64,000 nt of DNA from a virus. The position numbers and the translations under genes are program-made. Shown piece after piece: positions 4,141-28,756 of the stretch. The number at the start of each line of letters is the position of its first letter. Within the stretch, counting starts at the first letter, position 1. The notes under the pieces are model-generated. The model did not search any database and was not told the origin of the DNA. It saw only the letters and a list, made by a program, of their open reading frames with translations. The DNA is taken from the IMG/VR virus record IMGVR_UViG_3300023082_000010, positions 1-64,000 of that record. One strand, written 5' to 3'.

Positions 4141-5379
4141 TCAATCATTTGTAAGCCAGTCCTGAAAGAGCTTACGCATACGTTTTGACAAAATGCAAAT
4201 CTTAATTGGCTTTCCGTCACGAATTTGTGAACGCCATACAAATTGTACAAGCTCAGACAATGCAAACTGATTATTGTCAACATCCACACCATAATCTTGT
4301 AGGAATGAGGAAACAGAAACATGAGTAAAACGGTTATAAGCATGCACCAATACAGAACGATCACGATAAGCGTTTGTTGCTCTTGCTGTACAGGCTAGGA
4401 AGCATCCTTGTGCAATACCATCCTCATCAATCTCGCCATCTCCTGCACTATATCCTCTAGGTGAAACCTTTCTTGCACCTGAACGTGTCTGGTTAACAAG
4501 TGTAGACGGTACACACCAAACAAGATCAGTATTCTTAGCTTTGTTAGCATCACCAATAGCACGAATAGATTTACCAATAGCTGTCAAATCTTTCTGTGTA
4601 GCTTTTGAATACCAACTAGACGATAAAGATTCACCAGCCCACTCTTTAACTTGCTTATCTCCAACAAATTCAATCAAAGGAAAAAGGTTCGATTTACTCT
4701 GTTCATTAAGCTTTACCTCTGTAAAGTCAACAACTTCAACCCCTTTAAGTTTAAGGAATGAAGACATAATACTGCCTTTAAAAAGGTAAGTAAGAACAAT
4801 AACTCTTTCTGCTGAATGTATCAAACCAATAGGCAACTGAGTAACAAACATACTATCACTGCGTTTAGCCTGATAAATCATTCCAAGCTTACACATATTC
4901 GCAAGTTTAGTGTATTTAGCACCATCTTTAATCTCATCATTAAGCCAAACTAAACATCCATCTTCTTCAACCCTAATCTGTTTCAAATCTTTAAGGTAAT
5001 CAAAGTCAGACTTAGTGTAACCAGCATTCAGAGGTTCAATAAAACTTACTTCTTCATCAAGTATAAGTGTATATTTGTTTTGTTTAATCCAAAAAAGATG
5101 TGGTTGTTTAAGACTTGAATAAAGAGAGTGTGTAATACTAATATTAACACCAGACTGTAACAAGTCTAGTAAGTGCTCGCCCTTAGTGTCGAACTCTTCT
5201 GTACTAGGTGCAATGAATTTAGATTGAACACAAAAAGCTACAACCCTACCTTCACTCTCACTTAACAAAGGAGTAACATAAATGAATGGAGTAGTAGGGT
5301 TCGCTTCACACCACTTAAGAATAGAAGTAGTTTTACCACTACCCATTAGCTTATCTAAAACCTCAATCTTAAAGGTCAT
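4141..5379 (-). CDS. SF2/DEAD-like helicase-type P-loop ATPase, copy 1 (paralog of 27518-28756)
   Basis: Walker A MGSGKTT, motif Ia IYVTP, Walker B LILDEE, C-terminal ELVQFVWRSQIR. Confidence 0.75.
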   Translation of the reverse strand: MTFKIEVLDKLMGSGKTTSILKWCEANPTTPFIYVTPLLSESEGRVVAFCVQSKFIAPSTEEFDTKGEHLLDLLQSGVNISITHSLYSSLKQPHLFWIKQNKYTLILDEEVSFIEPLNAGYTKSDFDYLKDLKQIRVEEDGCLVWLNDEIKDGAKYTKLANMCKLGMIYQAKRSDSMFVTQLPIGLIHSAERVIVLTYLFKGSIMSSFLKLKGVEVVDFTEVKLNEQSKSNLFPLIEFVGDKQVKEWAGESLSSSWYSKATQKDLTAIGKSIRAIGDANKAKNTDLVWCVPSTLVNQTRSGARKVSPRGYSAGDGEIDEDGIAQGCFLACTARATNAYRDRSVLVHAYNRFTHVSVSSFLQDYGVDVDNNQFALSELVQFVWRSQIRDGKPIKICILSKRMRKLFQDWLTND

Positions 5380-5421
5380 ATTTTTTAAAAACCTCTCTTT
5401 CTTAGATACTTCTTTTCTTTA

Positions 5422-5466
5422 AGGACTGAAACACACAAACCCTTATAAATCAAGGGTTGTAGAGGT
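5422..5466 (-). promoter_or_regulatory. palindromic cis element beside helicase-like copy 1
   Basis: ACCTCTACAA-CCCTTG-N5-TAAGGG-TTTGTGTGTTTCAGTCCT; homologous to 28784-28827. Confidence 0.55.
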
Positions 5467-5475
5467 GTTTTACAA

Positions 5476-5664
5476 TCATTTCTCGACAGTGTTAGTCGAG
5501 TCTAAATTAAACATATCTAAGTAGCTATGGAAAGTGTTTATGTAATCTTCGTATGTTTCATGGTCAATCCATTCCCAATTACCTTTAGGATATTCATAAC
5601 CAACAGAAAGACATTTTTTATCACCTTTATATTCTTGAAATTGCTGTTTTGTGTAAGCAGCCAT
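5476..5664 (-). CDS. hypothetical protein
   Basis: 62-aa ORF coupled to the upstream stop. Confidence 0.55.
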   Translation of the reverse strand: MAAYTKQQFQEYKGDKKCLSVGYEYPKGNWEWIDHETYEDYINTFHSYLDMFNLDSTNTVEK

Positions 5665-5849
5665 TATATGTTCTCCGAAGATGGAACTACTTTACAAGTG
5701 TATATAGTGTATTCATAATCAGAATTCTTTAATTCAAATGAGCGTTTGTCTAAGTTTGCATCTTTCGATGATTCGTAAAAAGCAACAGTTTCTTCTGTTG
5801 TCTCAAAACTGTATCGTACCCACTTGTTTAGTTGATATATTACTTTCAT
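5664..5849 (-). CDS. hypothetical protein
   Basis: 61-aa ORF, ATGA overlap. Confidence 0.55.
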   Translation of the reverse strand: MKVIYQLNKWVRYSFETTEETVAFYESSKDANLDKRSFELKNSDYEYTIYTCKVVPSSENI

Positions 5850-6058
5850 TTTACAACCTCAGAATTAACAAAACCGTTAACTATCTGCCTGTGTTGGACA
5901 ACGTACATCAAGGGCTCAACATTCCCAACTCTTGCAAACAATCCATAATTCTCTTTCAAAAAGTCATCAGAAGGAATTCTTTCAGAATAAATATAAGAGT
6001 GCGTTCCGATAGGAACAAGAACTTCAATCTGGTAGCAGACAACTTCCTCGTCAACCAT
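5846..6058 (-). CDS. hypothetical protein
   Basis: 70-aa ORF with a strong AAGGAGG SD. Confidence 0.6.
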   Translation of the reverse strand: MVDEEVVCYQIEVLVPIGTHSYIYSERIPSDDFLKENYGLFARVGNVEPLMYVVQHRQIVNGFVNSEVVK

Positions 6059-6245
6059 TTAATACCTCCTTGATTTTACCATAAGACAAACCGACTTCCA
6101 GGATAAGACCAAGCATATCGGTGTTACCAGCTTCACGATACTCTCTCATCAGTTCAATAGTGATTCGGTCTGTCTCATAGCTCTTACCGTTAGCTTCAAA
6201 TGTGTAGGTCATGATCTTGATTCCGTGTTTGTCTTTGATGTGTTG

Positions 6246-6274
6246 ATTCTAGGGCAAAACAAAACCCCAGTCAA
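6246..6274 (-). promoter_or_regulatory. sigma70-type promoter
   Basis: TTGACT-17 nt-TAGAAT; the -35 is inside a hairpin loop. Confidence 0.75.
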
Positions 6275-6287
6275 GGGTTTTGTAAAA

Positions 6288-6608
6288 TTATTCATCATCT
6301 GTCAGCCCTCTAACGCCCTTGATCGGACCATACTTCTCAAAGCCACCTGCACCTAAAACACAGTCTAAATAGTCACTACCTGTTCCTGTGTAAGCTGGCT
6401 CGTCAAGGCCCTTAGAGTTTACGCCTGCCTCTAGCATAACAATCTGATATTTAAGATCACAGATAGTCTGTTCATGTTTATAGCAAAGTTGTCGCCAACT
6501 GTTACAACGACTTTCAAGTTCTGCATATTGCTGTTGTGTGTAAGCCATCATCCCTTCACCCGTTTCTTCACGAAGTTTGCGAACATCTTCAGCAGTGATT
6601 TGTTTCAT
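6288..6608 (-). CDS. protein with an EF-Ts N-terminal-like segment
   Basis: MKQITAEDVRKLREETGEGMM resembles the EF-Ts start ITA..VK.LRE.TGAGMM. Confidence 0.55.
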   Translation of the reverse strand: MKQITAEDVRKLREETGEGMMAYTQQQYAELESRCNSWRQLCYKHEQTICDLKYQIVMLEAGVNSKGLDEPAYTGTGSDYLDCVLGAGGFEKYGPIKGVRGLTDDE

Positions 6609-6907
6609 TCTGTTCTCCATTCAACTTCCATGCCTTCCCCACAAAGAAATGCTAGCACATAATCGGCAAATTCTTTATCCTGAATAAGTTCATTCCAGTT
6701 GTTTCTGTAGCGCTTCGTGCAGTTATCCAGAAGGTTGTAGGCCCTGCTTTGGCTGCCCATGCACATCCTAAAGAAAAGCTCACCACTGTGATTTCGCTGT
6801 TGTTTGTGGAAATCATTGCCTAAAGTGTCGTGTTCTGCAAGGTTATCTGCAATCTTCTTAGCCAGAGCTTCATATTGGTCATCATCTAATGTCTCTAAAT
6901 AAGTCAT
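6605..6907 (-). CDS. hypothetical protein
   Basis: 100-aa ORF with an AAGGAGG SD; first gene of the leftward unit. Confidence 0.7.
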   Translation of the reverse strand: MTYLETLDDDQYEALAKKIADNLAEHDTLGNDFHKQQRNHSGELFFRMCMGSQSRAYNLLDNCTKRYRNNWNELIQDKEFADYVLAFLCGEGMEVEWRTE

Positions 6908-6941
6908 ATCTACAACCTCCTTCCAATAAAATGTGTAGCCA

Positions 6942-6971
6942 AGTATGCCCCACCCAAATCACCCCTGTCAA
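6942..6971 (-). promoter_or_regulatory. sigma70-type promoter (leftward, in the divergent region)
   Basis: TTGACA-18 nt-CATACT. Confidence 0.6.
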
Positions 6972-7122
6972 CACCTCATCCCCAAGCCCCTCAAAAATAA
7001 TTCTCTAAATTTTCCTCCACATCCCCTTGCATTGTGTAAAGGTGTGTGCGAATATGGCTCTCGTAAGCAAATAGACAAGAAGGCTGGACGAATGGACAGC
7101 CTATCACATGAGGGGAAGAGAG

Positions 7123-7263
7123 ATGAGTAACGTTCAGAAGCTCGGTTGGGATGCAGCTATGCAAGGTAAGACTTATGAAGACTGCCCCTACCCCGAAGAC
7201 ACTGTTGGTTGGGTCGCTTGGACAAAAGGCTTCTTTAACGGTTTGTCTTGGCTTGAAGCTTGA
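7123..7263 (+). CDS. ribosome modulation factor (Rmf)-like small protein, 46 aa
   Basis: Hand translation MSNVQKLGWDAAMQGKTYEDCPYPEDTVGWVAWTKGFFNGLSWLEA matches the Rmf pattern G(Y/W).A...G.....CPY.......W..G(W/F); purine-rich SD upstream. Confidence 0.65.
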   Translation: MSNVQKLGWDAAMQGKTYEDCPYPEDTVGWVAWTKGFFNGLSWLEA

Positions 7264-7288
7264 CACCCACCTACACGTCTGCTATCTT
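7260..7288 (+). promoter_or_regulatory. sigma70-type promoter (rightward)
   Basis: TTGACA-17 nt-TATCTT. Confidence 0.7.
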
Positions 7289-7559
7289 CCTGACTGTACA
7301 GGCGTGACGTAAGACGTGTAAAACATTATTAATTGTGCAATTTAGGGCGAGATGTCGCCTTTGCGAATGGAGAGGTAAAATAAATGACTAGTTATATTAA
7401 TTATGGTCAAATGTCCAGCCTTGAGCGCCATGTGTTTCAATCCACTGGTGAGTGTGATAAACAGTTTCATATGGGCGAGAGTGAATTTAATCAGATGATT
7501 GATGAAATGGTGCATAAGCAAGTTATGCAACAGCAGGAAGAATTGATTGAGGAGGAAGT

Positions 7560-7790
7560 GTGATGGAAACTTTTTATATTGTCTGTGGATGGGACAACTA
7601 TTATCCCGATGCTGGTATTGGTAACATTAAGCTAGTGACCTTCGATGAGAATGAAGCCAAAGCTTATGTAGAAGAACAAATGAAACTTGAAAAATATGAT
7701 CGTTGTAATCAGTTTAAAATCTACACAAGTGACCAGTTGCCGTGGGGTGGATCAGATTATGTTAGCCCAGATTATTCTGGATCAGTATAG
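7560..7790 (+). CDS. hypothetical protein
   Basis: 76-aa ORF with a GAGGAGG SD. Confidence 0.6.
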   Translation: MMETFYIVCGWDNYYPDAGIGNIKLVTFDENEAKAYVEEQMKLEKYDRCNQFKIYTSDQLPWGGSDYVSPDYSGSV

Positions 7791-8019
7791 GCTCGATATA
7801 GAATACAGCTATGAGAGCGGTGATCAGTATCACTGCCTAGATTGGATTGATCTATCAGTGCTCTCTGGCACAATTTGTCTAGAAGGGTCGCATAGCTGCT
7901 CTCATGGCTGTGAAGAATATGTTGACATGACAGATGATGAGCTGTATTTTGTTGGGGAGATGTTTGGGAATGACATTGAAAAGAAATTATTGGAGGATTT
8001 GAGAGATGAGTTACCTTAA
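7759..8019 (+). CDS. hypothetical protein
   Basis: Likely start MLAQII at 7759; acidic. Confidence 0.55.
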   Translation: MLAQIILDQYRLDIEYSYESGDQYHCLDWIDLSVLSGTICLEGSHSCSHGCEEYVDMTDDELYFVGEMFGNDIEKKLLEDLRDELP

Positions 8020-8293
8020 AATGAGTGAAGAAGAAATCCACGATCTTGTTGAACGTGGTGGATTGGACGATGATATGTTCTTCAGCCTACATGAAGAAGC
8101 ACAAGAGCAGATCAATAAGACTGAATCAGCTTATAATGCTGTCATTGGGTATATGCTTGGTAAAGGTTATTGTGAAGAGCCCTTAAGTTTTTTACGCTGC
8201 TGGAACGAAGGTAACTTTGACGCATTGCGTGAAGAGTGGCCTGATGCACCAGAAGAGATTTACTTTGCTGATCCATTGTATAAAGGTAATTAA
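8006..8293 (+). CDS. hypothetical protein
   Basis: 95-aa ORF in a tandem array of small genes. Confidence 0.65.
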   Translation: MSYLKMSEEEIHDLVERGGLDDDMFFSLHEEAQEQINKTESAYNAVIGYMLGKGYCEEPLSFLRCWNEGNFDALREEWPDAPEEIYFADPLYKGN

Positions 8294-8294
8294 T

Positions 8295-8528
8295 ATGCGT
8301 GATGAAATGAGTCAATATTCTGGTGTGGCTAATTCCTACAAAGATTTCCCATTGTCTGCCTTGCGTCAGATGCAGAGTATTCTTGAGTGGGAAATAGAAC
8401 AAAGACTATTGAGTTTTGGTGAGATTAAGGTGGAGAAAGATCTGGGCAAGCTAGGAGACGTTGAAGGCAAACAAACAGTTTTTAGTTGGCAAAACAACGT
8501 AGTTATTGGCAATTTTGGGAGGAAATGA
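8295..8528 (+). CDS. hypothetical protein
   Basis: Likely start MRDEMS at 8295. Confidence 0.55.
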   Translation: MRDEMSQYSGVANSYKDFPLSALRQMQSILEWEIEQRLLSFGEIKVEKDLGKLGDVEGKQTVFSWQNNVVIGNFGRK

Positions 8529-8834
8529 GTGATGATCAACGCTAAAGATGAGTTCTTGGAAGAAGTAGACGGCAAGGAAGTTAAATGTGCCCTTGTCGAG
8601 CATTTCAACGGTAATTTTAGTTTGGTTGTCGGTTATTCGGAAGAGGACTTGAGTCGTTTCTTGTCTGAGCTTGACTTTAATTATGACGATGGATTTGGTG
8701 GACAAGAGTTGTATGGCACCATCTGGTATGAACATGGCACATGGTCTGAACGTGGTGAGTATGATGGTTCTGAGTGGTGGAATCATTGTCGAGTTCCAGA
8801 TATTCCAGAAAGTTTGAACGAAGGTGTACAATGA
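8529..8834 (+). CDS. hypothetical phage protein
   Basis: 101 aa with the aromatic-rich segment YDDGFGGQELYGTIW...WSERGEYDGSEWW. Confidence 0.7.
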   Translation: MMINAKDEFLEEVDGKEVKCALVEHFNGNFSLVVGYSEEDLSRFLSELDFNYDDGFGGQELYGTIWYEHGTWSERGEYDGSEWWNHCRVPDIPESLNEGVQ

Positions 8835-8994
8835 ACAGCACAAGACTAAAATCTCTTACAGCACTATTTAAGGCTATTAAAGAGGAGCAGCCTAGTCAAT
8901 TCGCTGTCACCTCTGAAGTGGATGAGGCTGGAAAAGTGCAATATGTTTATAGTAGGCCGTTTGTTGGTGAGCAAGTTAAAGGAGTAGAGAAATA

Positions 8995-9258
8995 ATGTTT
9001 ACAGCAAAAGATGTTGCTAAGCTAGTTAAAGAAAATGATGAGTGCCCTAATCTGGATTATTTCATTGAAAATTCTCTGGTGAAACAGTTTATGGCAAGTC
9101 CCAAAGCAACAGTATCAGCAGCTATTCTTCGGGTAAATAATTGGACATCAAAAGGTTTTATGTTTGCAATGGTACAGCGAGGTTTTAATGTAGCTTTTGT
9201 AACAGATCAACGCGACGGAGATTTTTACACAATCACATATCCACCACAGGAGCGTTAA
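8995..9258 (+). CDS. hypothetical protein
   Basis: 87-aa ORF, TAATG coupling. Confidence 0.6.
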   Translation: MFTAKDVAKLVKENDECPNLDYFIENSLVKQFMASPKATVSAAILRVNNWTSKGFMFAMVQRGFNVAFVTDQRDGDFYTITYPPQER

Positions 9259-9260
9259 TT

Positions 9261-9464
9261 ATGTTTGTAGATATTAAGAAAGGCTATAGGCAGTACAGCG
9301 AGAAAGAGATTCTTGCGTACGCTCAGTCAGGCGTGCTAGTCTGCGGTGATTATGAACTCGATGACTTCATCACATACCTTATGACAGGCATTGATGAGAT
9401 TATTGATGAGCGAATTCAGCAGGCTCGTGAAGAGTGGCAGAATAGTTGGGATGATGAGCAGTAA
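9261..9464 (+). CDS. hypothetical protein
   Basis: 67-aa ORF with an AGGAG SD. Confidence 0.6.
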   Translation: MFVDIKKGYRQYSEKEILAYAQSGVLVCGDYELDDFITYLMTGIDEIIDERIQQAREEWQNSWDDEQ

Positions 9465-9482
9465 TTTTTAGGGGAGAGGATT

Positions 9483-11342
9483 GTGAGTAACATCCGTAAA
9501 GTTATTGAAAACTATCTAGATGTTACTGGTGATAAATGTTGCTGCCCTTTCCATAAGGAACGCACACCATCGCTAAACATTTTTGATGATACAAATTCAT
9601 TCTATTGCTTTGGTTGTGGTCAATCAGGTGATGAGATTGAATTTGTTAAAGAACATAAAGGGTTAAGCTTTCTTGATGCAGTTAAAGAAGTCTGTTCAAT
9701 TCTTAAAATGACGAAAGAGGAGCTTATGGAAAGTAAAGATAAAGAAAAGGTTGCTGAGAAAGCAGCAATTGAGAACGCCGAAGCTATGGATATTGAAGAA
9801 GTTAAAGCGCTCATCCAATCCACAGGTTATGTTAGCCACGGTTATCGTGGTATTCGTGATGAGATTAATAAGTTCTTTGGTCACTTGAGTAAACTTGATT
9901 CTCACGGCAATGTACTTGCTCGGTACTACCCTGAGACTAATAACAACGGTAAGTTGACACGTTATAAATGCAGAAACACACCAAAAGATTTTAGTCACGG
10001 AAGTTTGGGAAATGGTGGAAGTAAAAGTCAACTAAGCGGGCAAGTTAAATTCAAGTCCCCGGCTAAGTACGTGCTCTACGTTGGCGGCGAAGAGGATAAA
10101 GCAGCAGCTTTTCAGATGCTTAAGGACAATCGCAAAGATCAAGATTTTGATCCTATCCCCGTAGTAAGCTCTACAGTGGGTGAGTTGACAGCTGCTAAAC
10201 AAGCCGCTCAACAGTATGAGTGGTTTGATATGTATGATATTATCATCATTGGGATGGATAATGATGAAGCTGGACGTGCTGCTGCAAAGAAAGTTGCAGA
10301 TGTATTACCTAAAGAGAAAGTACGGATTGCTACGTGGTCGGGCAAAGATCCAAATCAGATGCTTATCGATGGTAAAGAAAAGCAGTTTGTTCGTGACTTC
10401 TACAATGCTAAAGAGTTCATCAGCAGTGGTATTTCATCTTCTGGCGATGCTGAAGCCGGGTTGGCTGAATTCTTGACAGCACCTAAGATTGGCTTGCCAC
10501 CACAACTGAGTAAACTTGAAGCAGCAATGCGAGGAGGCATTAAATCCACTGGTTCAGTTGTCAATATTATCGGTGACACGAGTATTGGTAAGAGCTTTCT
10601 GTCTGATACGTTGATCTATCATTGGTTGTTCAATAGTCCTCGTGTTCCAACTATTGTCAGTCTTGAGCGTACAAAGGAAGAATTGACAATTGATTTGCTG
10701 TCAATGCATCTTAAGAAAAACCTGATGTGGTTCACAGATGGTCATGATGCTGTTGACTATTTGAATCAACCAGAAGTGCAAGTGTTAAAGAATAATCTTT
10801 TGTACAATGATGCTGGAGAGCCACGCTTTTTCATCATTGATGAGCGAGAGGGTGAGATTGAACTTCTTAAACGTCAGATGGAAAAGAGTGGTAAGGTGAA
10901 TGATTCACGGTTGATGGTGATTGATCCACTAACAGACTTCTTGCGATCTTTGGGTACAGAGGTTCAAGAAAACTTCATGATGTGGCAGAAGCTACAAAAG
11001 AAAAATGGGTTTGTATTCATTAACATTCTTCATACTCGCAAGCCTCCAACTGACAAAGATGGTAATGTGCGTAAAGTAACCGAATATGATGCGTTAGGGT
11101 CGGGGACATTTATTCAGTCAGCAGACGTGAACATTGTGATCAATCGTGATAAAATGGCTAGTGATCCGATTGAGAAAAATACTACGTATGTTGACATGCC
11201 AAAGTGTCGTGGGGGTATCACCGGTGAGATTTGTGCGCTATACTATGACGCTGAAACTCGTCAGCAGTATGATCGTGATGAGTATTTTGATCGTCAGGTA
11301 GATGAACCACCGCAACATCATGCGGATGAGATTGATTTTTAA
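9483..11342 (+). CDS. DNA primase-helicase
   Basis: CHC2 Zn finger (CPFH...CFGC), TOPRIM (GGEED, MDNDEAG), SF4 helicase Walker A GDTSIGKS and VIDP. Confidence 0.92.
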   Translation: MSNIRKVIENYLDVTGDKCCCPFHKERTPSLNIFDDTNSFYCFGCGQSGDEIEFVKEHKGLSFLDAVKEVCSILKMTKEELMESKDKEKVAEKAAIENAEAMDIEEVKALIQSTGYVSHGYRGIRDEINKFFGHLSKLDSHGNVLARYYPETNNNGKLTRYKCRNTPKDFSHGSLGNGGSKSQLSGQVKFKSPAKYVLYVGGEEDKAAAFQMLKDNRKDQDFDPIPVVSSTVGELTAAKQAAQQYEWFDMYDIIIIGMDNDEAGRAAAKKVADVLPKEKVRIATWSGKDPNQMLIDGKEKQFVRDFYNAKEFISSGISSSGDAEAGLAEFLTAPKIGLPPQLSKLEAAMRGGIKSTGSVVNIIGDTSIGKSFLSDTLIYHWLFNSPRVPTIVSLERTKEELTIDLLSMHLKKNLMWFTDGHDAVDYLNQPEVQVLKNNLLYNDAGEPRFFIIDEREGEIELLKRQMEKSGKVNDSRLMVIDPLTDFLRSLGTEVQENFMMWQKLQKKNGFVFINILHTRKPPTDKDGNVRKVTEYDALGSGTFIQSADVNIVINRDKMASDPIEKNTTYVDMPKCRGGITGEICALYYDAETRQQYDRDEYFDRQVDEPPQHHADEIDF

Positions 11343-11352
11343 GGAGAAGGTT

Positions 11353-13530: not shown

Positions 13531-13593
13531 AATAAAAGCTTGATTTATAAAATTAGGTTTGTTATTATTCTAAAGAGGAGCGTGTTAATAAAA

Positions 13594-14118
13594 ATGAAAA
13601 TTTTAGATGTAGAGTTTTTAAAAGATAGATTTGATTATGATCCTGAAACTGGTAAACTATTTTGGAAAGAAATTAATCAAATAAATACAAATCTTAGAAG
13701 AAGTCAGTTCGCTGGAAAAGAAGCTGGTTATGAGTATCAAGGTTATATTTATGTCCGAATCGGGAAAAGTAACTATTTATCACATAGGATTTGTTATGCC
13801 ATTTACAACGAGGAATTTCCAAAAGGTATTATAGATCATATTGATGGTAATAAGAAAAATAATAAAATTGAAAACTTAAGGGTTTGCACTCCGGCAGAGA
13901 ATGCTAAAAACGCAAAAAGATATTTGACTAATAAATCAGGAATAACAGGAGTTAGGTGGGATAAAAAAGATAACGCGTGGAGAGTTCAAATAGGTAGCAA
14001 TGATGGAAAAGTGCAAAAATCTTTTCATGATTTCTTTGAGGCTTGTTGCTTTAGGAAGTCAATGGAATTAAAATTAGAATATTCATTAAATCATGGTACA
14101 GACAGAGAAGGTAAATAA
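13594..14118 (+). CDS. HNH homing endonuclease with AP2-like C-terminal domain
   Basis: HRI...IDHIDGNKKNNKIENLR, then NKSGITGVRW; AT-rich insertion after pol. Confidence 0.85.
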   Translation: MKILDVEFLKDRFDYDPETGKLFWKEINQINTNLRRSQFAGKEAGYEYQGYIYVRIGKSNYLSHRICYAIYNEEFPKGIIDHIDGNKKNNKIENLRVCTPAENAKNAKRYLTNKSGITGVRWDKKDNAWRVQIGSNDGKVQKSFHDFFEACCFRKSMELKLEYSLNHGTDREGK

Positions 14119-15106: not shown

Positions 15107-15114
15107 GGTAGGAT

Positions 15115-18819: not shown

Positions 18820-18822
18820 TAC

Positions 18823-18852: not shown

Positions 18853-18877
18853 CCGCTTACTTTAATTGGAGGTGTAA

Positions 18878-19942: not shown

Positions 19943-19952
19943 GAGAGAAGGC

Positions 19953-20609: not shown

Positions 20610-21349
20610 GTCAGATTAAGGTGGAATATATTAATCACTGTGGTCATGACCTTTCAGTGGTAGATGCGGCACGGTGTAGTTTTGATAAATTAAGTGATTG
20701 GGAATATCCATCACAGTTTCCTGAAGAAAATTATAAAGATCCAGATAGTCGATTTTATCGAAACGAACTTGGAGGCTTTCAACGACTGAAGTCTTCAGAT
20801 GAAAAGCTTATTAAATACCTTGCAACTCACAAACATTTCTCGCCATTCAATCACAGCTTTATTAGTGTTCGTGTAAAGGCTCCTGTGTTTGTTGCTCGTC
20901 AACTTGTTAAACATAAATTTATGCCTTGGAATGAAGTGAGCAGACGCTATGTGAAAGGTGAAGTTGAATTTTATACACCGGAATATTGGCGAGAGGGTTC
21001 AGATAATGTAAAACAAGGCAGTGTAGATGAAGATGCGTATCCTCCAAGCATGAGTACTCATAACGCAAGTTGGTACGGTGATATAAATGACTATCACGAT
21101 TCTGCACTCAACTACTATAATCATTTGATTGAAAATAATGTTTGTGCCGAACAAGCTAGGCAAGTGTTACCACAATCGATGATGACGACGTGGATTTGGA
21201 GTGGCACACTGGGCGCTTTCTGTGATATGCTTAAGCTGCGACTTGATAGCCACACTCAATATGAAACGAGAATTGTTGCACAAGAAGTTGCTAAGATTGT
21301 AAAAGAATTGTTTCCTGTATCCTATGAGGCATTGGTTGGAGTAGAATAA
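20606..21349 (+). CDS. thyX: flavin-dependent thymidylate synthase
   Basis: VVDAARCSF, H.SPF.H, PVFVARQLVKH...NEVSRRY, EQAR.VLP, LR...HTQYE.R. Confidence 0.92.
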   Translation: MSQIKVEYINHCGHDLSVVDAARCSFDKLSDWEYPSQFPEENYKDPDSRFYRNELGGFQRLKSSDEKLIKYLATHKHFSPFNHSFISVRVKAPVFVARQLVKHKFMPWNEVSRRYVKGEVEFYTPEYWREGSDNVKQGSVDEDAYPPSMSTHNASWYGDINDYHDSALNYYNHLIENNVCAEQARQVLPQSMMTTWIWSGTLGAFCDMLKLRLDSHTQYETRIVAQEVAKIVKELFPVSYEALVGVE

Positions 21350-21350
21350 G

Positions 21351-21551
21351 ATGAGTTTTGTTAATGCAGAAGAATCACCAATTGAATATTATATTATTGA
21401 AGTAGCAGAACTTATGGCTGTACGAGAGGGTTTGAAACGACGAGAGGCACACTTGCGTATCCTTGAAACTCTTGGTGACTGGATTGTTTATTACGAAGCT
21501 GGTTTGAGTGCTAAGAAATCATATTCTAAGTTTTGGGGAGAAAGTGTATGA
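21351..21551 (+). CDS. hypothetical protein
   Basis: 66-aa ORF. Confidence 0.55.
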   Translation: MSFVNAEESPIEYYIIEVAELMAVREGLKRREAHLRILETLGDWIVYYEAGLSAKKSYSKFWGESV

Positions 21552-21721
21552 TTAACAAAGAACGTGTAGAAGAGCTTGTAGAATTTATTAAGTTTGAAAA
21601 AGAGTTGTTTATGGATTTGCATGCGGACATGGATGAGGAAGATTATGATAATTGCCTTGTTAATTTTGATGACACCGTTCAAGTGTTGTGCTCAGTCTTG
21701 AATGAAATGGGTGGTGTATGA
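21548..21721 (+). CDS. hypothetical protein
   Basis: Acidic small ORF, likely start MINKE. Confidence 0.5.
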   Translation: MINKERVEELVEFIKFEKELFMDLHADMDEEDYDNCLVNFDDTVQVLCSVLNEMGGV

Positions 21722-21816
21722 GTGATCACAGTCTGTCGTTCTTCGATCTTGAGAAGGTTGAAGGTTGGAGTAGTGCTTGGCAGGCACAAGATAAGAAAGA
21801 TGTGGGAGGCTAGGCT

Positions 21817-22554
21817 ATGAAAGTTGGCGACATCTACACCAATAAGTTCGGAGAAACATTTAAAGTGGTGGAGAAAACCACCAGTAAAAATGTCGTCGTA
21901 GAGTTTTGTGATGCGTATAAAGGCAGGACAACTACTCAAAAAGTACATATTCTCAGGGGCGCTGTTAGGAACCCTTTTGCTAGAAACTTATACGGTGTAG
22001 GTTATCTTGGACAAACAACAAAAGACAAATCACCAACAAGTAACCCTGAATATATTCGAGCTTACAGTGCTTGGTGTGGTATTATGGAAAGGTGTTACAA
22101 TAAAAATTTCCAAGAAATTCATCCCTCTTACGTAGGTTGTTATGTAAAAGAAACTTGGCATTGTTTCATGGTATTTGCCGAATGGTATATTGAGAATTCA
22201 ATTCTGAATTGGGATTTAGATAAAGATATTTTAGTAGTGGGTAACCGTGAGTATGGTCCTGAGACTTGTTTGTTTCTACCGCGTCACATTAATAATCTTT
22301 TTCACAAAAATGAGGGTCATAAGGAATCTGAATTGCCTGTAGGTGTTACACTCGCAAAGTCAGGTAAATACAGGGCAAGACTTTCAGAAAAAGGTTTTAG
22401 AAAACATTTAGGATACTATTTTACTCCTGAAGAAGCTCACCAAGTATACCGAGAAGCTAAGGTTGAATATGTACGGAAGGTTGCTTTTGATCATAAAGAA
22501 AATCTTCACCCTAAAGCATTTGAATTGTTAAGTAATTGGAGTTATATTGAATGA
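21817..22554 (+). CDS. HNH-type homing endonuclease
   Basis: LYGVGYLG, W..IM.RCY, LDKDIL..GN..YGPETC.FLP, AP2-like C-terminus. Confidence 0.8.
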   Translation: MKVGDIYTNKFGETFKVVEKTTSKNVVVEFCDAYKGRTTTQKVHILRGAVRNPFARNLYGVGYLGQTTKDKSPTSNPEYIRAYSAWCGIMERCYNKNFQEIHPSYVGCYVKETWHCFMVFAEWYIENSILNWDLDKDILVVGNREYGPETCLFLPRHINNLFHKNEGHKESELPVGVTLAKSGKYRARLSEKGFRKHLGYYFTPEEAHQVYREAKVEYVRKVAFDHKENLHPKAFELLSNWSYIE

Positions 22555-22916
22555 CAGACGCAACGCTTAGCTATTATGATCTAATGAATCAACCCGAGTT
22601 TAAACAGGCTGTAATGAAAGATGACAAGAAATTGATTGATAAACTTCTTTACTCTGTGGGTGTAAATCTTGAAGTTGGTTATGAGACAATAACTTGTAAC
22701 CATCGTCCGCTAGGTACTAACAAAGAGTGGATGGGCCCGATGATTATCTACGAGGAACGTCAGGATAAGGAATGGTTGTCTAGTGGAGCTGCCTCACTGA
22801 ATGCTCATATTAGTTCTTGTAAAGACCCCTTTTTGAAGGGTAGCCTGAGGGCAGCTAGTGCCCAAAGTTGTCCGGATATGGCTTGGGATGCCGACCTACA
22901 GAAAGAATGTAAATAA
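22551..22916 (+). CDS. hypothetical protein
   Basis: 121-aa coupled ORF before nrdB. Confidence 0.65.
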   Translation: MTDATLSYYDLMNQPEFKQAVMKDDKKLIDKLLYSVGVNLEVGYETITCNHRPLGTNKEWMGPMIIYEERQDKEWLSSGAASLNAHISSCKDPFLKGSLRAASAQSCPDMAWDADLQKECK

Positions 22917-22945
22917 ATTTTTAATTTAATCACTAAGGAGTAACA

Positions 22946-23941
22946 ATGGCACGTATTGAAGAATCAAAGGAGTCTTACACAGTAGACTATCCTCAAGCAA
23001 TTGAAGCTGCTAAGAAACAAACAAGCATTATTTGGTTTGCTGAAGAGCTAGGCGTGGAGAAAGATGAGAATGACCTCCGCACTAAATGCACAGAGGGTGA
23101 GCGACATGGTATCACTACAGTTTTGAAGCTATTCACACAATATGAACTGATGCTTGGTGGCGAAGAATTCTGGGGTGGGAAGGTTCAAAAGATGTTTCCT
23201 CGCCCAGATATTCAACGTATGGCAACCACATTTGCTTTTGTTGAAATTGGGATACATGCGCCCTTTTATGATCTTATTAACAAAACGCTAAGTATTGCAA
23301 CCGATGAGTTTTACCTGAGCTGGAAAGAAGACGAAGTATTGAAGGCTCGTGTTGAGTTTATTGATAAGTTTGCAGCCAGCGATGACAAACTTCGGGCAAC
23401 AGCAGCTTTTGCTTTTATGGAAGGCGCTGTACTATTCTCAAACTTTGCTTTTCTAAAGAGTTTTAATGTTGGTGGTTACAATATGATCCCCCATATTACT
23501 TCGGGCATCGATGCTTCGAGTAAGGATGAGGACTTCCACTCTATGGCATCAGCTTGGCTGTTCAATCAACTGCTGTCTGAGAAGTTAGAGGGTAAAGAGA
23601 TTACAAAAAAGGCTGTTAAAGAGCTTTATGAAGATATCAAACTTATTGCTCAGGAAGTTTATGAGCACGAGGCTCGTATTTGTGACATGATCTTTGAGAA
23701 AGGTGGTATCCGCACTATTGAAAAAGAAGATATGCTCCACTTTGTACGTAACCGAATTGATGTGGTGTTAACTTATTTGAATGCTAAAACTCTGTTTAAA
23801 GATAAGCAAGGGAAAGTGAGTGAATGGTTTTATAATCAACTCTCTACTTTTAAGTATGCAGACTTTTTTAATAACACTCAAATTCAATACGTACGGAATT
23901 GGAACAAAAGTAAGTTGAAATTTGTTAAGGAGTTGGTATGA
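22946..23941 (+). CDS. nrdB: ribonucleotide reductase class I beta subunit
   Basis: E...H...Y (VEIGIHAPFY), EG..LFSNF, DE..H and a C-terminal ADFF motif. Confidence 0.92.
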   Translation: MARIEESKESYTVDYPQAIEAAKKQTSIIWFAEELGVEKDENDLRTKCTEGERHGITTVLKLFTQYELMLGGEEFWGGKVQKMFPRPDIQRMATTFAFVEIGIHAPFYDLINKTLSIATDEFYLSWKEDEVLKARVEFIDKFAASDDKLRATAAFAFMEGAVLFSNFAFLKSFNVGGYNMIPHITSGIDASSKDEDFHSMASAWLFNQLLSEKLEGKEITKKAVKELYEDIKLIAQEVYEHEARICDMIFEKGGIRTIEKEDMLHFVRNRIDVVLTYLNAKTLFKDKQGKVSEWFYNQLSTFKYADFFNNTQIQYVRNWNKSKLKFVKELV

Positions 23942-25632
23942 CACAGAGTTTTGAAGAACTGAGTACAGAACGAAAGGATTTGCAAAGTAAGGGATTGGTT
24001 CCTGACTGGTTCACTACACAGTCTTGGCAGATGTTCAAATCCAAATATGCTGTTGCGGGTGAAGTAGGTGTTATTGGCCGTCATAAAACAATTGCTAAAA
24101 CACTTTCGCAATATATGGTTGGCAAAGAAGTTGAGTGGGAAGAGAAGTTTTTTAATCTTTTGTGGAAGGGTTGGCTCTCACCCGCCACACCAGTGCTGAG
24201 CAATTGTGGCACTGATCGTGGTCTTACTGTGTCTTGCTCAGGTCAATACGTGGCTGATAGTGTAGACAGTTTTTATAAGAATCGTCACGAGTCAGCAATG
24301 CTTGGTAAGTATGGTTTTGGTTGTTCTGGTTACTTTGGGGATATTCGCCCACGAGGCAGTAACATCAGTGTTGGTGGTCAAGCGTCTGGCGTTGTTCCGG
24401 TTATTATGGGATTCTCTCAAGATGCAGCCGAGATTAGCCAAGGTAGTCAACGACGAGGTAGCACAGCATCCTATCTACCTATTGAACATGGGGATTTTGA
24501 TGAGTTGGTTGATACTCTGGAAGCTACGCCAGATGGTTTGAATATCGGATGGGTAGTGTCAGATGGGTTTATTGCAAAGCTTAAATCAGGTGATGAAGAT
24601 GCAAATCGTCGCTTTACACGAGCCTTGTATGTGAAGCTTGTGACAGGCCGTGGGTATTTCTTCTTTGTGGACAAAGCAAACCGTCATCGTCCACAAGCCT
24701 ATAAAGATTTGGGTTTGGATATTAAAGCTTCAAATCTTTGCTCGGAAATTATGCTGCATTCATCTGAGAACCTATCCTTCTCTTGTGTGTTGAGTAGCAT
24801 GAACCTCGCTAAATATGATGAATGGAAAAACACGGATGCAATCTTTGAATCCACTGTGTTTCTGGATTGTGTAGTGAGTGATTTCCTTGTAAAGAGTGAA
24901 GGTATTCCGGGTCTAACTAAAGTCCGTAAATTCACTGAGAAAGGTCGTGCCGTAGGTTTGGGTGGCCTTGGGTTTAGTACGCTGCTCCAACAACGTCGGA
25001 TTCCATATGAAAGTATTGAAGCACAGTTTCTTAATGCTGAAATCTTTAAAAGTTTACATGATCAAAGCTTAGAAGCTTCTAAGTGGTTGGCCAAAGAATA
25101 TGGAGAGCCTGAATGGTTGAAAGGTTACGGTGAACGGATGACACATCGAACTGCTCTAGCACCCAACAAGTCCACAGCCCTTCTGATGGGTGGTGTGTCT
25201 GAGTCCGTCTCTCCAGATCCGGGTACGGTATTTGAACAAGGTAGTGCTGCTGGTGGGATGTTTCGTATCATTCCAGAGATTCACAAAATCATGGTAGAAC
25301 GTGGTGTTTATAGCAAAGAAACGCTTGATGATATCATTTCCAAGGTAGGTAGTGTCCAGCACGTTACTTGGCTTGATGAGAACGAAAAACTAGTGTTTAG
25401 GACTGCTTTTGAGGTGGATCAGAACGTCATCTTGCGGTATGCTTCACAACGGCAAAAATACCTGTGCCAAGGACAATCTTGCAACTTCTACGTTTCTGAG
25501 GAAGGTGATGAAGACCGTATTGCTGAGCTGCATACCAAAGCATTTTTGGATGAAAACATCTTGAGTCTATATTACATCTACAGTCGAACAGGAATCATCG
25601 TAAATAATGTGTGTATTAGCTGTGAAGCTTAA
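23938..25632 (+). CDS. nrdA: ribonucleotide reductase class I alpha subunit (no ATP cone)
   Basis: SPATPV, VSC, SNLCSEI, APN.ST, QGQS, LYY and a C-terminal CISCEA. Confidence 0.93.
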   Translation: MTQSFEELSTERKDLQSKGLVPDWFTTQSWQMFKSKYAVAGEVGVIGRHKTIAKTLSQYMVGKEVEWEEKFFNLLWKGWLSPATPVLSNCGTDRGLTVSCSGQYVADSVDSFYKNRHESAMLGKYGFGCSGYFGDIRPRGSNISVGGQASGVVPVIMGFSQDAAEISQGSQRRGSTASYLPIEHGDFDELVDTLEATPDGLNIGWVVSDGFIAKLKSGDEDANRRFTRALYVKLVTGRGYFFFVDKANRHRPQAYKDLGLDIKASNLCSEIMLHSSENLSFSCVLSSMNLAKYDEWKNTDAIFESTVFLDCVVSDFLVKSEGIPGLTKVRKFTEKGRAVGLGGLGFSTLLQQRRIPYESIEAQFLNAEIFKSLHDQSLEASKWLAKEYGEPEWLKGYGERMTHRTALAPNKSTALLMGGVSESVSPDPGTVFEQGSAAGGMFRIIPEIHKIMVERGVYSKETLDDIISKVGSVQHVTWLDENEKLVFRTAFEVDQNVILRYASQRQKYLCQGQSCNFYVSEEGDEDRIAELHTKAFLDENILSLYYIYSRTGIIVNNVCISCEA

Positions 25633-25641
25633 AATAAACGC

Positions 25642-25670
25642 TTGACCCCACCCTAAATCCTTGCCATACT
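25642..25670 (+). promoter_or_regulatory. sigma70-type promoter
   Basis: TTGACC-17 nt-CATACT. Confidence 0.6.
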
Positions 25671-25719
25671 GCCACCTTAGCTGAAAATGCTTTGGTGGCT
25701 TTCTTTTGGACTAAGATAT

Positions 25720-26016
25720 ATGAACTACAACGAACAATGCAGACGTGACTTCCAAACCAACAAATCATCTTGTGTTGCATGGTATTTGATGGCATCCTAT
25801 GCCTATTACAAACAAAATGAATCCTTGCTGTCTGATGAAGTCTTTGATAAGATGTGTAAATGGATGATAGAGAATTGGGATAGTATTGAACACAAACATA
25901 AAGGTTTTATAAATAAAGAATCTCTATCAGCCGGGACTGGCTTTGATATTGAATTCAATTTCTTTCCTCAGGGTTTACTGAGAGTTATTAATAAATTAAT
26001 TGGTGAACTTAAATGA
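25720..26016 (+). CDS. stand-alone NAD+-dependent DNA ligase domain Ia-like protein
   Basis: ASYAYY....SLLSDEVFD resembles LigA domain Ia Y.YY.D.P.ISDAEYD; no catalytic KxDG. Confidence 0.55.
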   Translation: MNYNEQCRRDFQTNKSSCVAWYLMASYAYYKQNESLLSDEVFDKMCKWMIENWDSIEHKHKGFINKESLSAGTGFDIEFNFFPQGLLRVINKLIGELK

Positions 26017-26210
26017 AAAACACTAACAGTTGGGTTGATGTCATTGCAACCCTCACTATCCTTGCAGCGTTGATTGCTGGAGGGTACTTGTGGCTTGTTT
26101 CAGAGAGTGATAAGATTATTCAAAGTAAGCATAGCCATTCTCAAGAGAAGTCTAGCTTGGAGAAGTTGGCGCCTAAGACATTTGAGGCTATCCAAAAGAG
26201 GACTGAATGA
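26013..26210 (+). CDS. small single-TM membrane protein
   Basis: Hydrophobic N-terminal segment. Confidence 0.55.
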   Translation: MKNTNSWVDVIATLTILAALIAGGYLWLVSESDKIIQSKHSHSQEKSSLEKLAPKTFEAIQKRTE

Positions 26211-26389
26211 TGAATATGATTGACAACGGTGTAGAAAAGTTTATCTCATTTGAAATTATTAATGATGGTGAACGCCTTGGCTATGAAATTACATTCGTAG
26301 ATTATTATAATAAGGTTTGTAAGAAGCTTGTCACCACCATGGATGAGGTTAGATGCTATCAAGAATGTAAAGCGAGTTGGGTGGAGTAG
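26207..26389 (+). CDS. hypothetical protein
   Basis: 60-aa coupled ORF. Confidence 0.5.
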   Translation: MMNMIDNGVEKFISFEIINDGERLGYEITFVDYYNKVCKKLVTTMDEVRCYQECKASWVE

Positions 26390-26391
26390 AT

Positions 26392-26757
26392 ATGAGCGAA
26401 GACTGTAAGCAATGTGGTACAATGATGTGGGATTTGGACGAAGACGGCCACTGCCCAGACTGTTCATACTATCAAAAAGAGGAAACAATGTTGAATAAGT
26501 ATGAAATGTATGAGCCTTATTATAGAAGTCGTTATGCAAGTACCAACATAGTAGCTTGTATTGAATCGGCTTACCCCGAACTTCTGCAAGATGAGGTTAT
26601 TGCAGGCTGGGTTGCAGAGATACATAACCTTGAGTATCTTCTTGATTGTCGAATGACAGATATTGCAGAGTTGAATCCGGGAAACATTAAAGCCATCAGA
26701 CTTCCCGGCAAAATTCATCAAGTAACTATTAAAGCCGAGGTTGATAATGAAAGTTAG
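26392..26757 (+). CDS. hypothetical protein with an N-terminal Zn ribbon
   Basis: CKQC...CPDC; GGAG SD before the ATG at 26392. Confidence 0.55.
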   Translation: MSEDCKQCGTMMWDLDEDGHCPDCSYYQKEETMLNKYEMYEPYYRSRYASTNIVACIESAYPELLQDEVIAGWVAEIHNLEYLLDCRMTDIAELNPGNIKAIRLPGKIHQVTIKAEVDNES

Positions 26758-26908
26758 TGATTTGCTTGAGGAGTTGATTAGGTTGACAGAAGAAGATGAA
26801 TCTGTGCTAGACCTTCGCGTCACTCTTGCTGGTTTAGAGTATAACTGTACAGCTGTTTATGTAAGAACTAACTGGGAAGAAACTGAAACTGTCTTGGATA
26901 TCACTTAG

Positions 26909-27148
26909 ATGAATACAACAGTTGAAGATGTCTTGTTTAGCATGGATTGCGTTGGTCTAGATAAAATCTTTGTTACACGAGAGATGTTTAGACGTGCAGA
27001 ACTAGAAGGTTTTCCAACAGATCGTATGGCTGTAAATTGCTTTCTTGATCAAAGTATGTCAGACTCACAAATCAAACAGAAAGAATCTGTTAAAGGTCCA
27101 CGTAATCGTTGGGGGGCGTTAAGTGAAGTGGATTATGAGCAGCTTTGA
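26909..27148 (+). CDS. hypothetical protein
   Basis: 79-aa ORF. Confidence 0.5.
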   Translation: MNTTVEDVLFSMDCVGLDKIFVTREMFRRAELEGFPTDRMAVNCFLDQSMSDSQIKQKESVKGPRNRWGALSEVDYEQL

Positions 27149-27238
27149 GACTGACAAGCATCTTTCTGGTGGTAAGCGCTCTGTCTGGGTGACATACAAG
27201 CACACTAAGATTTCAGTTTATAGAATACAACGTGAGGT

Positions 27239-27517
27239 TTGGTGATGAAAAGATTTGAGTATGATGGTGTTAAATATGTTGCTGACATCAGAGAAGAAGA
27301 TGGTTATGCATACCCTTGCATTTACAAAGAAAGTAAGTGGCTTTGGTTTGTAAGTAAGAAGCTGGTCTACACACAATCCGGTATCTCGTGGCCTTGGCAA
27401 TATGCTATCACATCCCGACCTGATCAGATTGAAAGCGCTTACAATACAGTCATTTCTTTCTTCAAGAGCTACAAGAAAGAGTGGGAAGGTAAAGATAACC
27501 CTTTTAGCGAGGCTTGA
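27239..27517 (+). CDS. hypothetical protein
   Basis: About 90-aa ORF abutting the helicase-like gene. Confidence 0.55.
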   Translation: MVMKRFEYDGVKYVADIREEDGYAYPCIYKESKWLWFVSKKLVYTQSGISWPWQYAITSRPDQIESAYNTVISFFKSYKKEWEGKDNPFSEA

Positions 27518-28756
27518 ATGAAAACTAAGATTGAACTTCTAGACTCAATCATGGGTAGCGGAAAGACACAAGGTGTAATTCAGTGGATGCTTAATAACCC
27601 ACAGAATAAATACTTGTACGTCTCACCAATGCTTACAGAAGTAGAACAAAGGATTCCTGAAGCTTGTCGCTCTCTAGAGTTTGTATACCCTTGCACAGAA
27701 GAATATAAAACCAAAGGAGAACACCTTCTAAAGTTGTTAGAAGAAGGCTGTAATGTTTCTTTTACACACTCCCTGTTCACTGATTTGACAAAGAAACATC
27801 TTGCACTAATCAAGAAACATGAATATATTCTTATTGTGGATGAGGAAGTTGCTCTGATAGAGCCATACAAAGGTATTTATGATCGTGATGATATTCTGTC
27901 TCTTGAGAAAGCTGGACACATTAAAGTGTTAGAAAATGACCTTGGTCGTGTAGAGTGGCTTTGGTATAATGATGATGAGATGAACAAGACTGTATACAGC
28001 AAGCTTAAACGTATGTGTGATTTAGGTATGCTGTATTGTGCTAAACGTGATCGTAAGATTATGGTTGTGCATCTTCCTATTGAGCTTGTGCAGTCTTCAA
28101 GACGTGTTGTACTTCTTACATACTTGTTTGAAGGTTCTGTTATGGAAGCCTTTATGAAACTTAAAGGTATTGATATAGTTCCATTTAAGGATGTAAAACC
28201 TATTAAAGAAACAAAAGATGTGCTTGCTAAGGCTAAAAGCCTGATTACATTTATTGATACACCATCTAGTAAGGCTGTAGCTAAACTTTCTATGTCTGCT
28301 ACTTGGTATGCAAAGAATGCCTCAGCAACAGATTTAGAAAAGATTAAGAATGCTCTTTTCTCTGTTTATAGGAAATATGGAGATAAAGATTTATTTTTGT
28401 TTACAGCACCTAAAACACAAGCTTGTTTGGAATACATAAAGAAAGAAGATATCACAAGGCACATCTTGCATAAGAATCTACCTAAAGATTTAGACTGGAT
28501 TTATTGTGGAACTAAAGCAACTAACATCTGGGCACATAAAACTATAGCTGTACATGCTTACAATAGGTATGTAAATACAGCTATTAAAGCATATTTACAA
28601 GATTATGGTACACCACCAAATGATGATAAATTTGCGTTGTCTGAGATGGTACAGTGGATATATAGAACACAAATCAGGAATGATAAACCAATATCTTTGT
28701 GTATTATGAGTGCTAGAATGAAGAAGCTTTTATGTAATTGGTTAGATAGTAAATAG
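27518..28756 (+). CDS. SF2/DEAD-like helicase-type P-loop ATPase, copy 2 (paralog of 4141-5379)
   Basis: Walker A MGSGKTQ, LYVSP, Walker B LIVDEE, C-terminal EMVQWIYRTQIR. Confidence 0.75.
   Translation: MKTKIELLDSIMGSGKTQGVIQWMLNNPQNKYLYVSPMLTEVEQRIPEACRSLEFVYPCTEEYKTKGEHLLKLLEEGCNVSFTHSLFTDLTKKHLALIKKHEYILIVDEEVALIEPYKGIYDRDDILSLEKAGHIKVLENDLGRVEWLWYNDDEMNKTVYSKLKRMCDLGMLYCAKRDRKIMVVHLPIELVQSSRRVVLLTYLFEGSVMEAFMKLKGIDIVPFKDVKPIKETKDVLAKAKSLITFIDTPSSKAVAKLSMSATWYAKNASATDLEKIKNALFSVYRKYGDKDLFLFTAPKTQACLEYIKKEDITRHILHKNLPKDLDWIYCGTKATNIWAHKTIAVHAYNRYVNTAIKAYLQDYGTPPNDDKFALSEMVQWIYRTQIRNDKPISLCIMSARMKKLLCNWLDSK

Follow-up and report, generated by a model that had tools for sequence, protein, structure and literature searches.

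YonV-family helicase-like genes and an associated palindromic element in a 92-kb viral genome

The YonV-family copies and their lineages

The virus record IMGVR_UViG_3300023082_000010 of IMG/VR is a complete genome of 92,420 bp (G000 among the genomes compared here), and its first 64 kb, the stretch that was analyzed and is hereafter called the window, contain two helicase-like genes on opposite strands, paralogues A and B, each of which is accompanied by a conserved palindromic element. A third copy, paralogue C, lies with its own element outside the window (Table 1). Genes for a DnaG-DnaB-type primase-helicase, a DNA polymerase, an HNH endonuclease, ThyX, and ribonucleotide reductase are located between A and B, and B is the final gene of this rightward block of replication and nucleotide-metabolism functions, beyond which the opposite strand encodes a block of myovirus structural genes. 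The initial annotation had described two copies that bracket a replication arm; the arm is real, and the count has to be raised to three.

Paralogues A and B are intact open reading frames (ORFs) of the same length, as had been stated at the outset, and their products align colinearly from end to end (40% identity, 62% positives, BLASTP E value [E] of 3e-109). Local sequence searches against Pfam, NCBIfam, PADLOC, and the PDB returned nothing above threshold for either protein. The sole match in NCBIfam, below threshold, was a P-loop resemblance to CyRepA1, and membership in an anti-phage defense family was rejected in the absence of any PADLOC match. Both proteins are members of PHROG 2467 (function unknown), which is matched over residues 1 to 411. 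The Pfam family PF27199 (YonV_C), named for the YonV protein of phage SPbeta, is carried by close homologues and by the nearest ESM Atlas clusters; the assignment was made via precomputed annotation on homologues that are 80 to 91% identical and on these clusters. The YonV family comprises 2047 clusters at 50% identity, nearly all of them stand-alone proteins of ~410 amino acids (aa). No functional study was found in the literature on yonV, PF27199, the PHROG numbers, and the Acinetobacter relatives, and the only datum found is that, in lysogens of SPbeta, yonV is cotranscribed with the toxin operon of yonT (PMC5848175).

The blocks listed in the initial annotation as shared between A and B correspond to superfamily 2 (SF2) helicase motifs with no or almost no variation in an alignment of 70 family members. 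Lys16 of the Walker A motif, Asp108-Glu109 of motif II, and Gln379, Arg383, and Arg387 of motif VI (the arginine fingers in lobe 2) are invariant; Asn336, also in lobe 2, is invariant or nearly so, and the Walker A glycines Gly13 and Gly15 are conserved in at least 90% of the sequences. The P-loop is present in A, B, and C. The AlphaFold model of paralogue B (predicted local distance difference test score [pLDDT] of 92.3) has a compact SF2 core of two RecA lobes with an insertion of ~85 residues (112 to 195) after motif II. Its best matches among solved folds are CasDinG (Z of 15.9 over 343 residues), XPD (Z of 15.6), and Staphylococcus aureus DinG (Z of 15.1), followed by INO80/SNF2 translocases, and hundreds of SF2 helicases match the model across residues 1 to 412. 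Motifs and model together identify A, B, and C as predicted SF2 helicase-like ATPases with intact ATP-binding and arginine-finger motifs. The invariant and 90%-conserved columns of the family alignment contain no conserved cysteine as would be required for an Fe-S domain, which places the YonV family, judged by its modeled fold, next to the XPD/DinG helicases and outside their family. One metagenomic family member, P0151 (750 aa), carries a LAGLIDADG intein immediately behind the lysine of the Walker A motif; the intein ends in His-Asn, followed by Thr.

The analogy with the herpesvirus protein UL9 that had been drawn in the initial annotation received no specific support. The closest folds are those of XPD and DinG, UL9 ranked 47th in the viral fold library with a template modeling (TM) score of 0.35, no better than generic SF2 helicases, and the protein offers no room for a C-terminal origin-binding domain. 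Profile matches in the PDB that bear on a UL9-type relationship had E values of >2, and the family Herpes_ori_bp gave a single P-loop match of 40 residues in one homologue (E of 0.003, below the cutoff).

A quick maximum-likelihood tree built from 76 family members places A, B, and C in three separate, well-supported clades, each together with proteins of other phages: the A clade contains G006, G003, and P0121, and C is joined by SPbeta YonV and by one of the copies of the Vibrio phage VH-8. The tree indicates that the three copies represent old separate lineages instead of a local duplication. Between the old duplication and the second acquisition that had initially been considered, acquisition fits the tree better, as none of the copies has another of them as its closest relative. 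Single-protein profile searches of eight related complete genomes (83 to 93 kb) revealed one to three copies per genome and differing types. Only an A-type gene is present in G006 and G003, only a B-type gene in G001, and only a C-type gene in G007, G004, and G005; G002 harbors two B-related copies, and the cultured phage VH-8 has three. Each of the YonV-like genes of VH-8 is directly followed by a homing-endonuclease-type ORF [L023:2733-3401(+), L022:879-1547(-), and L024:2828-3598(+)], for which the matches to GIY-YIG and NUMOD1 are weak and remain below the Pfam gathering scores and T5orf172 and DUF723 reach theirs.

The related genomes are highly mosaic, with structural genes at 65 to 72% DNA identity, a replaced DNA polymerase, and no counterpart for most of the small neighboring ORFs, and the helicase genes rank among their best-conserved segments. 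Paralogue A and the single copy of G006 share 96% protein and 86% nucleotide identity with a ratio of nonsynonymous to synonymous substitution rates (dN/dS) of 0.06; the corresponding values are 98% protein identity and 0.02 for C and its G007 counterpart and 80% identity and 0.13 for B and the single copy of G001. For comparison with this range of 0.02 to 0.13, the dN/dS of the primase-helicase is 0.08. These low ratios indicate that all three copies are functional and constrained by strong purifying selection, in agreement with the early description of helicase-like genes that diverged and were kept intact. The gene and its flank are better conserved than the genomic backbone, and the similarity between genomes has sharp limits, with the gene at one end and a point just past the element at the other. 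In G003, the exact slot of B, between the ribonucleotide reductase genes and the genes at 28.9 to 30.5 kb, is occupied by an A-type gene, and a B-type gene of G002 adjoins primase and polymerase. The copies are thus exchanged like cassettes, with types and slots being shuffled, instead of having been duplicated in place. A conserved protein partner was not found in the annotated relatives, where the gene heads or sits within long arrays of small hypothetical genes.

The palindromic element and the mini-polymerase genes

A comparison of the flanks revealed a 20-mer that is common to the regions after B and C (19 of 20 bases), and the aligned orthologous flanks define an element of ~55 nt that is composed of an imperfect palindrome of ~40 nt, a spacer of 5 to 8 nt, and a short conserved box. 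Elements A, B, and C are all co-oriented with their own genes; an inverted orientation at B and C was ruled out, since the arm of the palindrome can be matched in either direction and the complete element runs with the gene. Element A bears a terminator-like flag and folds better than its shuffled versions (z of -2.4). The element is always located at a gene boundary, either 24 to 62 nt after a stop codon or 32 to 135 nt before a start codon, and in G002 it is followed by a ribosome-binding site and the start codon of the next gene.

A profile of ten sites gave significant whole-genome matches only at YonV-like genes and at stray sites; this test is circular and was repeated in a leave-genome-out design. 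The profile from the sites outside G000 detected exactly the three G000 sites and nothing else at an E value of ≤0.01. Conversely, the profile from the three G000 sites recovered those beside the YonV-like genes of G001, G002 (both copies), G004, G006, and G007, i.e., in five of the seven related genomes, together with one stray match, and a second stray match, in G003, was obtained with the full profile. These two apparent orphans were discarded as such, as both are located just upstream of an ORF of 440 to 457 aa that is homologous to the mini-polymerase-like gene of G000 (Table 1). The element is essentially absent from the ~170 other gene boundaries per genome. A general phage promoter or terminator was likewise rejected, significant profile matches being confined to YonV-like and mini-polymerase genes.

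The mini-polymerase-like protein of G000 has 452 aa, and its invariant residues are a Gly-Arg pair, Asp254 (motif A), Lys319 (motif B), and His416-Asp417 (motif C). Its profile matches in the PDB were all to Pol I, within the block from motif 1 to motif A, and weak (E of 0.3 to 0.7). The structural model (pLDDT of 92.7) matches family-A DNA polymerases with Z scores of up to 13.2 and single-subunit RNA polymerases with Z scores of 10.6 to 12.0, and the top 50 Foldseek matches are all family-A polymerases. The protein consists of a minimal family-A core without exonuclease domain, and residues 40 to 150 are weakly winged-helix-like (Z of 5 to 6). From sequence and model, it is a predicted family-A polymerase with palm and fingers of the Pol I type. 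Its distribution is patchy and multicopy: zero to two copies per genome were counted in the eight genomes, and it was found in 245 phage records, often with two to three copies each. Many Vibrio, Aeromonas, and Rheinheimera phages likewise have several copies.

When the 200-nt upstream regions of all ORFs of at least 100 aa in the eight genomes were scored with a profile derived from the YonV-associated sites, all ten mini-polymerase upstream regions reached 6.5 to 20.1 bits, compared with a median of 0 for 698 controls (Mann-Whitney p of 8e-36). The lone control that reached 8 bits is the same physical site read from the divergent neighboring gene. The palindrome therefore marks two unrelated families of DNA-enzyme genes and essentially nothing else. 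Sigma-70-type -35 boxes follow several of the polymerase-associated elements. The mini-polymerase was not detected in VH-8, SPbeta, the SPbeta-like phage BUCT082, an Alicyclobacillus phage, and G002, empty search answers being weak evidence; if these nondetections hold, there are element-bearing genomes without it, and the polymerase is excluded as a partner that the element has everywhere.

A scan of 97 kb around 12 distant family members (E of ≤3) gave four matches, all of them within 70 nt of the end of a YonV-family gene. The two better ones are located upstream of the 8-kb copy of VH-8 (E of 2e-4) and downstream of the gene in BUCT082 (E of 5e-3); the other two are in the Alicyclobacillus phage and SPbeta. 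Such a placement has a chance of ~6% per match, which corresponds to a binomial P of 2e-5, or of ~3e-4 if the two SPbeta-like phages are counted once. The sequence of the element is kept from Bacillota phages to Pseudomonadota phages, between which the YonV-like proteins share <30% identity. The initial annotation had regarded each gene with its adjacent element as a self-contained module: the linkage holds in the leave-genome-out test and in distant phages, with the cis motif recurring beside homologues in other genomes, and the notion is incomplete in that the copies number three and the palindrome also marks the mini-polymerase gene. In the Acinetobacter phage vB_AciJM_313 (L070:1635-2939), the depositors annotated, with no basis given, a "putative replication origin" ~1 kb upstream of the YonV-like gene, over a tRNA cluster; the element profile finds nothing at this annotated site.

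Folded as DNA, 19 cores had a mean z of -1.3 in comparison with dinucleotide shuffles, six of them were below -2 (collective p of 8e-4), and several sites keep the conserved sequence without a significant hairpin. RNAalifold found no column-wise consensus hairpin, the arms being offset between sites; early folds of single sites were not significant, and Rfam returned no family match at the elements. The sequence of the element is accordingly conserved more than its hairpin structure, and this conservation extends between genes whose proteins are only 25 to 40% identical, which argues for recognition by a specific factor over a generic terminator. GC skew tracks transcription, and the B and C sites lie at convergent junctions; therefore, no origin signal can be derived from skew. 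Of the three elements, only that of copy C opens a long stretch of this kind, an AT-rich (36% GC), noncoding gap of 648 bp, of which at least 270 nt are ~90% conserved in G007 and which can be aligned with G004; neither an ORF nor an Rfam match was found in this gap.

Genomic context

The GC-rich hairpin between B and its convergent neighbor (Table 1) also follows, together with the neighboring genes, the single copies of G001 (B-type) and G003 (A-type); it belongs to the context of the slot and lies outside the conserved element. A circularly permuted protein of the YpsA/SLOG family is encoded just upstream of copy C and is 80% conserved beside the C-type gene of G007. No tRNA gene is present within the window, and one is located just beyond it. 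A group I intron was identified in a gap of 313 bp between two ORFs, upstream of the terminase large-subunit ORF. The PHROG match of the latter begins only at profile position 176, which suggests that the intron probably interrupts the terminase gene; the upstream ORF of 245 aa, without a Pfam match of its own, is the candidate first exon. The HNH endonuclease with an AP2-like domain directly 3' of the DNA polymerase gene and a second AP2-like ORF are probably free-standing homing endonucleases. Two further paralogous ORFs have no Pfam match, and homologues of them are present in all related genomes examined.

Table 1. Positions of the features discussed in the text (genome numbering; the window comprises the first 64 kb)
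Feature	Position	Strand	Remarks
Paralogue A, YonV-family SF2 helicase-like ATPase, 412 aa	4141-5379	(-)	ORF; PHROG 2467, E 5e-66
Element A	5411-5465	(-)	Upstream, ends ~32 nt before A start codon; core ~5438-5458; nhmmer E 9e-09
Paralogue B, YonV-family SF2 helicase-like ATPase, 412 aa	27518-28756	(+)	ORF; PHROG 2467, E 2e-62
Element B	28785-28839	(+)	Starts 28 nt after B stop codon; nhmmer E 3e-08
Paralogue C, third YonV-family copy, 435 aa	81394-82701	(+)	Outside window; ~30% identity
Element C	82734-82786	(+)	Starts 33 nt after C stop codon
Noncoding gap opened by element C	82702-83349		Outside window
Mini-polymerase-like protein, 452 aa	66225-67583	(-)	Beyond window; PHROG 4756, no Pfam match
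GC-rich terminator-like hairpin	28863-28884	.	Between B and convergent gene 28912-29466(-); read from sequence
HNH endonuclease with AP2-like domain	13540-14118	(+)	
Second AP2-like ORF	31493-32029	(+)	
Paralogous ORF, 245 aa	21817-22554	(+)	
Paralogous ORF, 295 aa	87328-88215	(-)	Outside window
ORF flanking the group I intron	54577-55983	(-)	
Group I intron	56008-56220	(-)	Rfam, 76.6 bits, E 1e-17
ORF flanking the group I intron	56297-57034	(-)	
tRNA gene	64226-64299	(-)	Outside window
YpsA/SLOG-family protein	80614-81204	(+)	Outside window

Possible functions and known counterparts

Overall, the observations are tentatively read as exchangeable cassettes of a gene and a cis element, in which the element is a putative recognition site for a trans-acting factor and the YonV proteins are accessory DNA translocases or helicases; on the basis of sequences and models, we favor this reading while stopping short of calling it probable. 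The element would be recognized in a sequence-specific manner by a trans-acting protein, and the YonV-type protein itself would be the most parsimonious binder, because no other gene product was found in all of the element-bearing genomes that were examined. The element might be a loading or initiation site on the DNA or an operator that couples the expression of helicase and mini-polymerase. The YonV proteins would move along DNA or unwind it at the expense of ATP, in an accessory role in phage DNA metabolism that complements the replicative primase-helicase and does not substitute for it.

Several points weigh against this reading. The profile scan detected no element beside the YonV-like genes of G003 and G005, and the same is true for the Acinetobacter, Psychrobacter, and Clostridioides phages and for the other two copies of VH-8; the coupling of gene and element is therefore not universal. 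Two of the distant matches, both downstream of the gene, are individually weak, i.e., those of the Alicyclobacillus phage (E of 0.16) and of SPbeta yonV (E of 0.95), and the latter coincides with an annotated stem-loop that is maybe an ordinary terminator. We know of no XPD/DinG helicase that binds specific sequences. Furthermore, the element sits at the borders of genes and in some genomes precedes a ribosome-binding site and another gene, a placement that would also fit a plain transcription signal.

Such a signal, consisting of a terminator or insulator hairpin with a promoter-like box that is read by the host and coinherited with the gene of a "moron" cassette, is unlikely, even if it is the foremost of the alternatives. 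The constant boundary position and co-orientation with the gene, the terminator-like flag at A, and the annotated stem-loop of SPbeta are what it predicts, as are the translation start that follows the element in G002 and the -35 boxes after several polymerase-associated copies. It is difficult to reconcile with the near absence of the element from all other gene boundaries, with a sequence that is retained from Bacillota to Pseudomonadota while the hairpin is of modest stability and missing at several sites, and with the B site, where there is no gene to drive. Somewhat less likely still is an origin-initiator module, in which the element is an accessory origin that is opened by the adjacent helicase and the mini-polymerase recognizes the same site and starts synthesis. 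Hairpin-dependent initiation by single-subunit RNA polymerases is known from the mitochondrial light-strand origin and the early promoters of phage N4. The persistence of the gene-site linkage over long evolutionary distances speaks for such a module, and so do the AT-rich gap at copy C with its conservation in G007 and G004 and the presence of the palindrome at a polymerase-like gene whose product has a winged-helix-like N terminus and a core that matches single-subunit RNA polymerases nearly as well as DNA polymerases. However, iterons are missing, an AT-rich unwinding stretch is lacking at the A and B sites, and B and C are placed at convergent junctions that are skew maxima, not minima (with skew following transcription here). 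Unlike in coevolving pairs of initiator and origin, the element is nearly identical for proteins that are 30 to 40% identical; in addition, element-bearing genomes without a detected mini-polymerase exist (G002, VH-8, and SPbeta), at least four origins in 92 kb would be many, and the fold is not UL9-like.

The more far-reaching proposal that helicase, palindrome, and (where present) mini-polymerase form a portable, previously undescribed system for site-specific initiation of DNA synthesis is, given the sequence evidence, doubtful to a slightly greater degree than the origin module itself. If true, phages would swap an accessory module for origin function or priming as a cassette, and this module would be ancient and common to phages of Bacillota and Pseudomonadota. 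The least probable of the rival explanations is a boundary of mobility or recombination, with the palindrome as a site of cassette exchange, a nuclease target, or a recombination hot spot. It would explain the shuffled types and slots and the sharp ends of similarity at the gene and just beyond the element, and it fits the patchy, multicopy occurrence of both gene families and the attraction of the YonV family for selfish elements, as exemplified by the P-loop intein of P0151 and the homing-endonuclease-like ORF after each VH-8 copy. Nevertheless, a recombinase or nuclease is not consistently adjacent, each cassette has one element and not two flanking copies, and neither target-site duplications nor empty sites with a lone element were found, the two "orphans" being polymerase associated. 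Functions outside these readings, e.g., in counter-defense, may account for the remaining probability.

The YonV family is large and occurs in model phages and candidates for therapy (SPbeta and myoviruses of Acinetobacter baumannii), yet it has no described function. The conserved cis element offers a substrate to try in assays of binding and unwinding and could be deleted in the tractable system of SPbeta and Bacillus subtilis 168. The link to the mini-polymerase points to a possible unrecognized accessory pathway of DNA synthesis, and the cassette-like exchange illustrates how phages shuffle replication-associated functions.

Among known proteins, the 5'-3' SF2 DNA helicases XPD/Rad3 and DinG, including CasDinG, resemble the YonV-type protein over both RecA lobes (Z of 15 to 16 over 320 to 350 residues); the extra domain that the latter carries after motif II in lobe 1 may correspond to the Arch domain that is inserted in lobe 1 of these helicases. 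In contrast to them, the YonV-type protein has no conserved cysteine cluster, is far smaller (412 aa), and shares only 12 to 14% sequence identity. UL9 of herpesviruses is also a viral SF2 ATPase that exists beside a separate replicative helicase, and its sequence resemblance is weak and limited to the P-loop, whereas its C-terminal origin-binding domain has no counterpart in the YonV-type protein, which has half the length of UL9. YonV of the Bacillus prophage SPbeta belongs to the same family, with colinear full-length matches at 28 to 30% identity; it shares the tree group of copy C, and a related element is found just 3' of yonV, which is present in one copy in SPbeta compared with three YonV-type genes here.

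With respect to the mini-polymerase, the virion RNA polymerase of N4 with its promoters and the mitochondrial RNA polymerase at the light-strand origin are comparable in their family-A/T7-type core, here with a palindrome upstream of the mini-polymerase gene; the 452-aa protein is far smaller than both and without their promoter-recognition modules. The arrangement of gene and site can be compared with lambda O and ori, P4 alpha and ori, and plasmid Rep proteins and iterons. It differs from these initiator modules in having no iterons and a nearly identical site for diverged paralogues and an unrelated polymerase gene, and it resembles them in the lasting linkage of a DNA-metabolism gene to a specific site nearby, with which it moves.

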